From Craspedostauros australis (taxonomy: Eukaryota): a stretch of DNA of 46,778 nucleotides. The notes under the pieces were generated by a model that saw nothing but the letters and a program-made list of their open reading frames with translations, was not told the DNA's origin and searched no databases. The translations under genes were made by a program, and so were the position numbers. The stretch is taken from contig JALAGF010004636.1 in the NCBI GenBank assembly GCA_030167865.1, forward strand, positions 1-46,778, in the 5' to 3' direction. Positions 8,870 to 14,875 of this stretch are shown piece by piece (the first letter of the stretch is position 1; each line of letters opens with the position of its first letter).

Positions 8870-9751
8870 TTAAGCAACGTCGCTGCCGTCGTCGGACAGA
8901 TCCTCGGAAGGATCGACGTTCGCTGCAGCGGCTTGTTCGGTGTCGGTGGGGATGTCGCTCACGGTCTTGTTGGGGTTGTATCTCTTCTGCCTCGTGCTGC
9001 GCAACATAAAGAAGATCGCAACTAGGAGGGCGACTCCCACCACGGCCCCGACAGTGGCGCCAGCGATGACGGCGGTATCTGGACCATCGTCGCCGCCATT
9101 CCGGTTCAGCTGGATGGGAGACACTTCCTCACCGGAATCGACGTCCACAGGCTTTTCGTTGGTGCTGCCATCCGACTCCTTGCGACACAGGAAACAGTCG
9201 GCGGCCTTGGTCTCCAAAAGTTCCTTCGCCGAGATGAAGGGACTTCTGTCATCGCAGGCCGTCGCCGACACGGCGCACCAATGGAAGCCGCCGTGGATGC
9301 AGGCACCCACGCGCACGTTCTCGCAGGTGCATTCGGGGTTGGTGCCGGCCGGCTTCCAAGTGCCGGAACAGTCGTCCTTGGACCAGAAGCAGGCGTCATC
9401 GCAACTACCGAACAGAGTCGGCGTGCTGCTCTGATCATCCTGCCTGATGGTGCAGGTCTTGGTGGTGTCGGCGCGCACGTCCGAGGCCGTCATGAAGTCG
9501 GAGGGATTGGCGCAGGCCGATGCGTGGCTCGTGCAGCGTCCGCCGCAACGGCCGATGGAGGCCTCTTCCGTGAAGGTGCGAGTAGCGCAGGCGCCGCCGT
9601 GGGCGTTGCCGGCATTGCTGAGCTCTCGGGACGAATCCCATGCCGTATCCGCCGGACAGTCGTTGCTGTCCAAGGCACAAGGTGCGGCCTGGCCGAACCT
9701 CATGCAGGCTCCACCCAGGACAGATCGTCGGCCGGTGCTGCTGTCAGTCAT
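8870..9751 (-). CDS. Cys-rich single-pass membrane protein of unknown function (~293 aa)
   Basis: ATG in a diatom-like context (ACAACACC ATG). 18 Cys arranged in recurring GAC/GRC/GSC...C...C units, then a TM helix AVIAGATVGAVVGVALLVAIFFML, a basic stop-transfer RSTRQKR and an acidic tail. No obvious signal peptide. Confidence 0.8.
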   Translation of the reverse strand: MTDSSTGRRSVLGGACMRFGQAAPCALDSNDCPADTAWDSSRELSNAGNAHGGACATRTFTEEASIGRCGGRCTSHASACANPSDFMTASDVRADTTKTCTIRQDDQSSTPTLFGSCDDACFWSKDDCSGTWKPAGTNPECTCENVRVGACIHGGFHWCAVSATACDDRSPFISAKELLETKAADCFLCRKESDGSTNEKPVDVDSGEEVSPIQLNRNGGDDGPDTAVIAGATVGAVVGVALLVAIFFMLRSTRQKRYNPNKTVSDIPTDTEQAAAANVDPSEDLSDDGSDVA

Positions 9752-10014
9752 GGTGTTGTGTCTTGCGTTGTTGCTATGCAGGTGAAGCTGTGAAGCTGAT
9801 GGGTGGATCAGGGAGCTCCAATGAAATGAATGGATGGATGCGAATGCGAGGTGAGGAATTCCGTTCTGGCTACTTACGAGTCTCGAGAGAGGAGGAATCG
9901 ATCTGAGAAATTCGAAGGAACCGCAGCCCAAGTCAGAACTGGATGATGAGCTTGCGAGTTTTTGTGAGCGTGCTGAAAACGAACCGACTCAAGTCAGGTT
10001 GGAGGTAATGGTTT

Positions 10015-10989
10015 GACACGTGGTCTTGTGCGATTGTCGAAGAATCAGAAGGTGCCAGCGCAATGAAGGCCAGCGAGCGAGAATTGTGAGAACGGAAGCG
10101 GGGAAGGTCGAAGGCAAGAGATGGGCAAACAGACAGAGGGTGTTTGTGCCCACTGCGTGTTCCGATCGAAGCTGGACGAGCGTGCGCTTGTGCGTGTGCC
10201 CACCACACGCCGAGTCCATCATCATCATCAGCAGCAGCAGCAGCATCACCAGCAAAAACACATCACAACTTCGCCGAAGGATGGTTGAAGTGATCGCTGA
10301 ACTTTCGGAGCACCGGCGCAGTGACATAAAGGAGGCAGTCTGAGATCTCTTGGATGTGACATTAGTTGGATGCGCGTGTGGAAGGCGACAGCAGATCCAA
10401 AGAAGGATAGCCTGCTGCTATTGCCTCGATCCTTTTGAGCTGAACTTCCGGGATGCAAGGGCGAGTTTCTGTGTGACAAGGGTGTTGGATGCACGATCCT
10501 TGGGAGAAATTTGTACGACATCTCACAGTGCGCGTGGTTACGATTTTTTCCGTGAATTCCGGAAGATGTCTTTTCGTTGCTTCACATCTTTCCATGTGGG
10601 TTGCACGCATCCGACACGCGCTCGTCAGAAAGAACTCACAATTTGTCGAACTTTCCTTCTCCCTGGCAACACAAATCGAACAGTTTCGTTCAACATGATG
10701 CGGTCAATGGACGAGATAGCGACAAAGAGAGAGAGAGAGAGAGGGAGGCGTGTGCTGCTATCACGTGTCAGCAGCGTGGCCAATTGACATTCTCCACTGT
10801 CTCGAAACGAAGCAACATACGGACACTGCACTTCTGCACATGATGTGCCTCTCGATCTTGTGTTCCGACGCAGCAGGCAACATCCCACAGACATGACAGG
10901 TGGAACATCGCCGCCCACCTTCGCAGACCCAAGATGGCCAACGAAGGCGAGGGTTTCTTGAGAGCATGCAACAGTTCCCATCACGTGGC
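10015..10989. promoter_or_regulatory. G-box (CACGTG) motifs in the divergent promoter: GACACGTG 10015-10022, CACGTGTC 10762-10769, CACGTGGC 10982-10989
   Basis: The motifs are seen directly. From memory, CACGTG-core motifs have been associated with low-iron-induced diatom promoters, but they are short and also occur elsewhere in the window. Confidence 0.35.
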
Positions 10990-13670: not shown

Positions 13671-14005
13671 ACGTTGGCGCGTCCAACACACTCTCGCGAG
13701 CACGGGAAGGACAGATACTTCCAACTTAGGTACATCGTCTTCCCTTGCGATAGACACCAAGCCCACAAACGAGGGAAATCTATGTAAATCTCACACAAAG
13801 AAATAGGAATATCATGTTATACTCAGCAATAGTGTCCCTGCACCTCCGGCCCTTTCCTGTGCTCTCTGCTATAATATTATAGTTTCCAATTCAGTAGTCA
13901 ATTGGACACATGCAAGACCTCATATCGCTTTGCTACTGATGCCGACGCCAGCTTTTGTTGCGCCGAGAGACCACGCAATTCGTTTCCTTCTCCTCGTCCA
14001 TGGTT

Positions 14006-14875
14006 TCATTCTGCCAGCTCCACAGACTTCCCGCTCGCGACGCTCCACTGATGCGTGAGAAAGGACGTATTGACGATACCAGGCGAGCGAGAGTTTCCAA
14101 AACGAAATGAAACGCAAACGACACAGTGGAGGAGAGCAGAGCAGTGGGTCTGTCAGCATCCAAGGTACAATCTTGCAAACCGCGTGCATTTCTGAACTGA
14201 ATAAATCACATTTTGCGCTTTCATACCATGATCATTGAGAGGCATCGTTCTGTTTCTGATCCGTCCGCCTCACCTTTTGCAGCTTCTTCAGCATCAATTC
14301 CTTCGATGTCGTTTCCGATGCCTCCACCAGCACCGTCTTTGTCTTCCAATCCGTCTGAACGTCGCTGACGCCTGCAACCGCGCAGCGTTGTTGTTGTTAT
14401 TGAGGGAGAAATGCCAACGCAGAGATTGTTCCGAAACAAGGTTGAGAGATGCGACGCGCTGATGTGACATGGTGCAACCAATGCAGGTCATGTGTGCGCG
14501 GAGTGGAACAAGTCATGGTGAATTGCGCCCTCCCTCCATCCTCACCGCCAGTAGCACGAGGCATTGACTTTCAATTGTGCAGAGTCCGGCATACCGTACA
14601 TCCTCGTAGAGACTCCAGGACTCTCCTTTGCTCTCTTCTGCTCACCTTCAACTTTGGACAGCACATTCTTGACGGCTCTCTCGCATCCTTCGCTGCAGCA
14701 TGAAATACGGACGAGCAAACAAAGGGGAGCAAGGTTGGGCATGTGAGAATCGCCAGGCCTGTGTCATCGTCACCCGCAGCACTTCATCAACAGCCAATCA
14801 GCGCAGTCCGCTCATCCATCCATCCCATCGACGCACGCACCATGTCATGCCGACATTGAACTTCGTTTGAACCAT
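14006..14875 (-). CDS. ATX1: ATX1/ATOX1-type copper chaperone (HMA domain), 73 aa; exons 14875-14841, 14692-14646, 14371-14274, 14047-14006
   Basis: Spliced translation MVQTKFNVGMTCEGCERAVKNVLSKVEGVSDVQTDWKTKTVLVEASETTSKELMLKKLQKWSVASGKSVELAE*. It has the MxCxxC metal site and C-terminal GK, and all three introns are GT-AG with consistent phases. Confidence 0.93.

Follow-up and report, generated by a model that had tools for sequence, protein, structure and literature searches.

We identified a divergent gene pair in a 46,778-nt stretch of the genome of Craspedostauros australis (contig JALAGF010004636.1 of assembly GCA_030167865.1, positions 1 to 46,778 of the forward strand; hereafter the window), encoding an ISIP1 protein and a cysteine-rich (Cys-rich) membrane protein that we assign to the pTF.CatCh1/ISIP2b family, and recovered the same pair outside this genome. 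The proteins of the window have their nearest relatives in raphid pennate diatoms, and the genes are eukaryotic and spliced. Our preferred reading, to which we assign a probability of about 0.6, is that the two genes constitute a conserved divergent pair that serves under low iron from a shared promoter, and that the ATX1-type copper chaperone gene converging on ISIP1 is incidental. A preliminary description of this DNA, made from the sequence, had tentatively grouped all three genes into one co-regulated low-iron module; the pairing of the Cys-rich gene with ISIP1 held, and the membership of the ATX1-type gene did not.

The conservation of the pair was assessed in metagenome contigs and in database gene models. 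Scanning metagenome contigs with an alignment of the window Cys-rich protein and its relatives (A1, 18 sequences) yielded five loci, of which only one, L002, carried flanking DNA. In L002, a gene for a Cys-rich homologue (9986-10894, + strand), 38% identical to the window protein, stands head to head with an ISIP1 homologue, which is 53% identical to window ISIP1 over 579 aa, has the same C-terminal TLGSKRVA, and has introns at the sites of introns 1 and 2 of the window gene. The first exon of this ISIP1 gene starts at 9414, and the spacer between the two L002 genes is 571 nt long. In Amphora coffeaeformis, the ISIP1 homologue (P0215) and the Cys-rich homologue (P0037) are the gene models scaffold2724...AAC.3 and ...AAC.4, which follow one another on a single scaffold.

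The outer neighbours of the pair differ between loci. In the window these are a PI-PLC gene (with the Pfam domains PI-PLC-X and PI-PLC-Y) on the side of the Cys-rich gene and the ATX1-type gene on the other, as opposed to a CREG gene past ISIP1 in L002, the contig of which ends 404 nt beyond its Cys-rich gene. Because the outer neighbours differ while the pair stays, the comparison argues for selection on the pair over leftover synteny, and gene order supports the Cys-rich gene as a real, non-random partner of ISIP1. An adjacency of ISIP1 with a CatCh1-family gene is not mentioned in the available portions of the literature that treats both CatCh1 and ISIP1, nor are the neighbours of ISIP1 mentioned in the available portion of Kazamia 2022. 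As judged from these gene orders, the new point is the conservation of the ISIP1/Cys-rich head-to-head pair.

Directly downstream of ISIP1 in L002, at 5575-6981 (- strand), we identified a gene for a 468-aa tandem CREG_beta-barrel protein (E=7e-47) with a hydrophobic C-terminus. This protein resembles 'CREGx2' of Thalassiosira oceanica, which is low-iron-responsive according to the available text of Lommer 2012 (PMC3491386). In Phaeodactylum tricornutum, an iron-sensitive cluster on chromosome 20 comprises pTF.CREG1, pTF.CatCh1, ISIP2b and pTF.ap1 (Turnsek 2021, PMC7972479, in the text available). Families linked to iron starvation are physically clustered in both cases. In contrast to the chromosome-20 cluster, for which that text lists four genes without ISIP1, L002 sets CREG, ISIP1 and the CatCh1-like gene side by side, whereas the window holds the two-gene core only, with no CREG gene within 46.8 kb. 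We favour reading the locus as a variant form of the iron-starvation gene clusters known from diatoms.

The ISIP1 gene of the window has four exons, with GT..AG at every border, and its spliced product of 553 aa is identical to database protein P0001. By sequence and predicted fold, this protein is an ISIP1 orthologue. Its relatives include P0033, which is CAMPEP_0198140926 of Entomoneis sp. CCMP2396 and the reciprocal best hit of P. tricornutum ISIP1, Phatr3_J55031 (Kazamia 2018 Table S1, PMC5955625). P0001 matches P0033 at E=2e-94, with 36% identity over 531 aa, homology being gauged here against a published reciprocal-best-hit orthologue and not against the Phaeodactylum protein itself. An exhaustive HMMER search with ISIP1 returned 288 representatives at E<=1e-3, with a top identity of 45%, and the best relatives of the protein are altogether just 44-53% identical to it. 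No Pfam family was found above threshold, either for the individual exon pieces or for the full P0001, which agrees with the statement of Kazamia 2018 (PMC5955625), in the text available, that ISIP1 lies outside all Pfam families. Searches of the ESM Atlas gave leads below 0.9 only, with bacterial beta-propeller lactonase/YncE clusters at 0.87.

The predicted architecture is likewise that of ISIP1. Residues 1-19 form a hydrophobic, predicted signal peptide (Kyte-Doolittle 1.97 over 12 residues) that ends in AQA. The AlphaFold model (predicted local distance difference test, pLDDT, 84.6; predicted TM-score, pTM, 0.79) is all-beta to residue 470, with helices at 473-492 and 501-526, and was matched by Foldseek to seven-bladed propellers at E values of about 1e-9 to 1e-10, including the YVTN propeller 1l0q and the designed seven-bladed propeller 7bid. 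Six cysteines lie mid-chain (234, 235, 237, 247, 272 and 276), a hydrophobic stretch at 497-526 provides the predicted transmembrane segment, and the leucine of the DNRTL motif in the tail (543-547) stands 22 residues past the end of this segment. Every architectural feature of ISIP1 described in the available text of Kazamia 2018 (PMC5955625) and Lommer 2012 (PMC3491386), namely the signal peptide, propeller, cysteine centre, transmembrane segment and D/E-x-x-x-L motif, was found in the window protein.

In common with the ISIP1 proteins of P. tricornutum (Phatr3_J55031) and T. oceanica, the window protein has a signal peptide, a two-lobed seven-bladed propeller around a cysteine centre, a stalk helix, a C-terminal transmembrane segment with D/E-x-x-x-L about 22 residues after it, and no Pfam family. 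It differs from known ISIP1 in length (553 aa, against 569 aa), in its tail motif (DNRTL, against DEEVSL) and, as far as the available descriptions of known ISIP1 extend, in sharing a spacer with a CatCh1-family gene. The original designation of the protein as ISIP1-like is therefore borne out by the match to P0033, the propeller model, the transmembrane segment, the endocytosis motif and the cysteine cluster. In Phaeodactylum, ISIP1 is required for endocytic siderophore-iron uptake. We additionally noted BtuG surface propellers of Bacteroides (8bmy, 8okv and 8bn0) among the best Foldseek matches of the ISIP1 model, with a TM-score of about 0.6 on the target. BtuG propellers bind cobalamin at the cell surface, and the likeness of the model to them is an analogy in fold with a surface receptor that takes up a metal chelate, and is no evidence of kinship.

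The Cys-rich protein had been described as a membrane protein with 18 cysteines and as an undescribed partner. The first part was confirmed: the single-exon gene product, identical to database protein P0034, has 293 aa, 18 cysteines and one hydrophobic segment at about 224-254, after which the chain continues with basic residues and ends in an acidic tail. The second part did not stand, as a homologue from Fistulifera already figures in the published pTF.CatCh1/ISIP2b alignment, and the window protein can be assigned to this described heterokont family by a link that is good but indirect. We identified 17 relatives of 275-316 aa, and all five for which an organism or source is named are from a diatom or from MMETSP. 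One of them, P0036 of Fistulifera solaris (FisN_2Lh021), matches the window protein at E=3e-42, and the near-identical F. solaris sequence GAX24486.1 is part of the supplementary pTF.CatCh1 tree alignment of Turnsek 2021 (PMC7972479). In that alignment, by our own column count, 17 of the 18 cysteines of GAX24486.1 share a column with a cysteine of pTF.CatCh1, including those of the C-x-C, VR.GAC, CAV and C-x-L-C blocks.

Within A1, 17 cysteines are invariant, and C141-x-C143 and C186-x-x-C189 are found in all 18 sequences. The alignment is further characterised by the motifs AHGGAC, C-x-C-x-x-VRVGAC and CFLC, by the transmembrane segment and basic residues, and by an acidic C-terminus around an invariant serine. 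In the ectodomain (residues 8-190), four tandem modules, each about 40 residues long and closing with C-x6-C and a tryptophan or phenylalanine (cysteine pairs 25/32, 73/80, 121/128 and 159/166), precede the C-x-x-C motif. This four-module repeat is not mentioned in the available text of the account of pTF.CatCh1 in Turnsek 2021 (PMC7972479).

According to the same available text (Turnsek 2021, PMC7972479), pTF.CatCh1 and ISIP2b are iron-starvation proteins of Phaeodactylum, and pTF.CatCh1 is a heterokont-specific paralogue of ISIP2b, with 349 aa, 20 cysteines, C-x-C and C-x-x-C motifs and a C-terminal transmembrane segment, that is iron-induced and colocalises with phytotransferrin. The window protein resembles both pTF.CatCh1 (Phatr3_J52498) and ISIP2b (Phatr3_J54987) in size (about 300-350 aa), in the 18-20 cysteines of its N-terminal two thirds, and in the order of C-x-C and C-x-x-C motifs, linker and a single C-terminal transmembrane segment followed by basic residues. 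It differs from them in possessing one C-x-C motif where they have three, in a conserved acidic ..E.LSDD C-terminus, and in the pairing of its gene with ISIP1, as opposed to a place in the CREG1/ap1/ISIP2b cluster.

A further difference lies at the N-terminus. Whereas pTF.CatCh1 has a signal peptide at residues 1-26, none was found in the window protein, in which N-terminal hydropathy peaks at 0.8, and a hydrophobic leader was not obvious in any of the 12 of 18 A1 members whose N-terminus reaches beyond the conserved GGDG start. We treat these proteins without a signal peptide, on their sequence features, as a putative distinct subfamily of the pTF.CatCh1/ISIP2b family, with uncertain topology. 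The basic residues after the transmembrane segment and the acidic tail suggest that the C-terminus of the Cys-rich protein is cytosolic, and the tail, which is short and conserved, resembles a sorting signal.

The underlying gene models were supported by open reading frames, by splicing and by assembled reads, confirming the three genes, the 1.57-kb head-to-head spacer and the 335-nt stop-to-stop gap of the preliminary description (Table 1). The reads derive from the one public run that covers the locus, X1, the kind of which is guessed ('RNA?') and is not on record as RNA; they were used as Logan contigs, the depth of which offers no basis for ranking the genes. All six introns, three GT..AG in ISIP1 and three CT..AC in the ATX1-type gene, are skipped exactly by X1 contigs, and contigs span 8400-9460 and 9642-9975 at the Cys-rich gene. 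Inside the spacer, contigs extend to at least 9975 from the side of the Cys-rich gene and have begun by 11221 on the side of ISIP1. The contig at 9642-9975 is ungapped and no in-frame ATG exists upstream of 9751, indicating that the Cys-rich gene has no hidden signal-peptide exon. A single contig reaches from exon 2 of ISIP1 across the 3' region to the last exon of the ATX1-type gene and over its last intron (joint 14047>14274), and since it spans both 3' ends, the convergent ISIP1 and ATX1 transcripts overlap or abut. X1 contigs join both convergent pairs, ISIP1/ATX1 (13671-14047) and PI-PLC/Cys-rich (8355-8869), with 3' ends that overlap or abut on either side of the ISIP1/Cys-rich pair. Among 30 depth bins, those at 10038-10739, 10974-11207 and 15186-15400 were uncovered, to which we attach no meaning.

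Table 1. Features of the ISIP1/Cys-rich locus and its convergent ATX1-type neighbour (positions in the window).
Feature	Position	Strand	Details
Cys-rich gene (assigned to the pTF.CatCh1/ISIP2b family)	8870..9751	-	single-exon open reading frame, 293 aa, 18 Cys
Head-to-head spacer, Cys-rich gene/ISIP1	9752..11319	.	1568 nt ATG-to-ATG; putative bidirectional promoter
G-box CACGTGTC	10015..10022	-	oriented with the Cys-rich gene, ~265 nt upstream of its ATG
G-box CACGTGTC	10762..10769	+	oriented with ISIP1, ~550 nt upstream of its ATG
Third CACGTG core of the spacer	10982-10987		motif scan of the window
ISIP1 exon 1 (signal peptide)	11320..11377	+	joint 11375>11592 (cut +2) in X1 contigs
ISIP1 exon 2 (first propeller lobe, start of Cys-rich centre)	11594..12326	+	relatives search, splicing, X1 contigs
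ISIP1 exon 3 (remainder of Cys-rich centre)	12518..12681	+	splicing, X1 contigs
ISIP1 exon 4 (second propeller lobe, stalk helix, transmembrane segment ~497-526, DNRTL 543-547, stop)	12964..13670	+	splicing, X1 contigs, AlphaFold, hydropathy
Interval between convergent ISIP1 and ATX1 stop codons	13671..14005	.	335 nt
ATX1-type HMA gene	14006..14875	-	exons 14875-14841, 14692-14646, 14371-14274, 14047-14006; 73 aa

We investigated the spacer for elements of iron control. The sequence CACGTG(T/C)C is an iron-responsive element of P. tricornutum promoters according to the available text of PMC11947080, citing Yoshinaga 2014. CACGTG cores occur 20 times in the window, with three in the spacer, and the longer CACGTG(T/C)C occurs six times; the 1568-nt spacer has two of these, one oriented to ISIP1 and the other to the Cys-rich gene. 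Iron control of the ISIP1/Cys-rich pair is plausible from these elements. At the window G-box at 10762, TGGCC follows 7 nt further on. The L002 spacer contains two GGCCCGTG(C/T)CT(A/G)TGGCC-like copies, at 9547-9565 and 9629-9647, about 80 nt apart, and these GGCCCGTG-type copies may be a diverged form of the window G-box element. A relaxed core, MCGTGYC, counted post hoc, has nine sites in the L002 locus, three of them within the 571-nt spacer, and is not enriched across the window. Simple repeats were also noted, with a CAT/CAG run at 10218-10255 and a GA run at 10727-10745 in the spacer, and a CT run at 12455-12482 in intron 2 of ISIP1.

Several observations weigh against a conserved, iron-responsive divergent pair. 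The adjacency in Amphora is known from the consecutive numbering of the gene models alone, without orientation. In addition, L002 and Amphora are mutually related (70% identity for ISIP1 and 56% for the Cys-rich protein, against 52% and 37% for both relative to the window), so that the pair has been kept in approximately two independent lineages, and not three. The window, as noted above, lacks the CREG gene seen in L002. For the promoter, two CACGTG(T/C)C copies in the spacer compare with about 0.2 expected by length, an enrichment that is a post-hoc count, and the exact G-box is not conserved, as neither of the two CACGTG matches of L002 falls inside its spacer. The window spacer contains the Lommer motif, ACACGTGC, in one-mismatch forms only and never exactly, and the window and L002 spacers have 50 common 8-mers, which is within the shuffle range (maximum 51). 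Iron control is thus no more than plausible. Finally, the topology of the Cys-rich protein is uncertain because it is without the signal peptide of pTF.CatCh1, and its link to pTF.CatCh1 runs via the Fistulifera homologue in the published alignment.

The points on lineage number and promoter divergence also bear on the alternative that the adjacency is leftover synteny and that ISIP1 and the Cys-rich gene, though neighbours, are regulated independently of each other. The survey of approximately two independent lineages and the lack of an exactly conserved promoter motif are in keeping with it; we nevertheless regard it as improbable, since the pair alone is kept where the outer neighbours differ (PI-PLC and ATX1 against CREG), both families are separately tied to iron starvation in the literature, and CREG, a third family of the iron clusters, lies alongside in L002. 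It is also improbable, in our view, that the Cys-rich protein has no metal role and is instead a disulphide-rich protein of general function at the surface or in sorting, with nothing more than a cysteine scaffold in common with pTF.CatCh1. The protein has no Pfam family above threshold, its predicted model is of low confidence (pLDDT 60.8) and gave no PDB match by Foldseek at E<=0.001, and the ESM Atlas offered nothing useful (best 0.81). Its cysteine spacing appears more like that of disulphide modules than of metal knuckles, and metal roles in the family are stated as hypotheses only, with no demonstrated metal binding for any member in the text available. Set against this are the iron induction of pTF.CatCh1 and its colocalisation with phytotransferrin, as reported in the available text, the conservation of the C-x-C and C-x-x-C motifs, and the conserved pairing with ISIP1.

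The remaining alternative concerns the third gene, which is genuine. As the preliminary description had claimed, it encodes a copper chaperone-like protein: the spliced 73-aa product carries MTCEGC at residues 10-15, with two cysteines in total, and aligns by BLASTP with HMA domain 2 of CopA from E. coli at 34-37% identity over 38-41 residues, across three exon junctions, at an E value of about 1e-6 in a tiny search space in which this one bacterial domain was the sole comparator. No transmembrane segment was apparent on reading the exon translations, and the 32-aa exon alone returned nothing in PDB or Pfam searches. Like the ATX1, HAH1 and CopZ chaperones, the protein is small (73 aa), has a single HMA domain with M-x-C-x-x-C in its first loop, and lacks a transmembrane segment and a signal peptide, and it fits an ATX1/CopZ-type chaperone, with the subtype assigned by size and motif.

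In yeast and green algae, a copper-dependent reductive route of iron uptake is established. All three genes might form one co-regulated low-iron/copper module, in which ATX1 would feed copper to a P1B-ATPase and a multicopper ferroxidase in support of iron uptake. We consider this improbable, even though the ATX1-type gene is real, spliced and present in X1 together with ISIP1 and the Cys-rich gene, and has a 3' end that adjoins or overlaps the 3' end of ISIP1, which is its sole specific link to the pair. No ATX1-like gene was found in the available 11.3 kb of L002, where CREG follows ISIP1, so that of the three genes this stretch shows ISIP1 and the Cys-rich gene only. No CACGTG occurs from 12035 to 18513, a range that includes 1.4 kb upstream of the ATX1 start codon, and the literature searched yielded nothing relevant that ties ATX1 or a copper chaperone to diatom iron. 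The non-reductive siderophore uptake in which ISIP1 is placed, in the text available, does not require a ferroxidase. On gene order and motif content, the ATX1-type gene is most likely an incidental convergent neighbour.

Under the reading that we prefer, of a conserved ISIP1/Cys-rich pair, ISIP1 would act as a seven-bladed propeller receptor, with a signal peptide, cysteine cluster, transmembrane segment and D-x-x-x-L endocytosis motif, and the 1.57-kb spacer would function as a bidirectional iron-responsive promoter via its CACGTG(T/C)C G-boxes. The Cys-rich protein would end up where ISIP1 does, in an endosomal or chloroplast-proximal compartment that processes iron, and would there accept or chaperone the iron once released, or act as a docking partner; these are the roles proposed for pTF.CatCh1 with phytotransferrin (Turnsek 2021, PMC7972479, in the text available). 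The ATX1-type gene would encode a cytosolic Cu(I) chaperone and merely converge on ISIP1.

A further-reaching version, which we offer as tentative and on balance unlikely, is that ISIP1 and the CatCh1-like protein constitute a dedicated two-part unit for siderophore iron, the genes of which stay linked through a shared iron-responsive bidirectional promoter, and that CREG, ISIP1 and CatCh1-type genes form a recurrent cassette for iron uptake in diatoms. The ISIP1 propeller would then capture or escort a metal chelate, in the manner of BtuG, and the Cys-rich partner would take the iron after endocytosis, in parallel to phytotransferrin and pTF.CatCh1. The 3' overlap with ATX1 could in this case add antisense cross-talk between copper and iron status.

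Elsewhere in the window, we noted two paralogous ankyrin-repeat open reading frames of 572 and 504 aa (16295-18010 and 21744-23255, both + strand), an AAA_16 open reading frame of 1326 aa (23864-27841, - strand) and two GH99-like open reading frames (35407-38731, - strand). None of these ankyrin-repeat, AAA_16 and GH99-like open reading frames is iron-related by Pfam.

ISIP1 is among the most strongly iron-induced genes of diatoms, and is a common marker of ocean iron stress. To our knowledge, its ligand and partners are not yet established, and pTF.CatCh1 has so far been tied to the phytotransferrin route only. The conserved pair identified here, accompanied by CREG in one diatom, provides ISIP1 with a candidate partner, and may link the siderophore and phytotransferrin routes of iron uptake at the level of gene order. 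The spacer between the two genes is additionally a candidate for a compact, natural bidirectional promoter under iron control.

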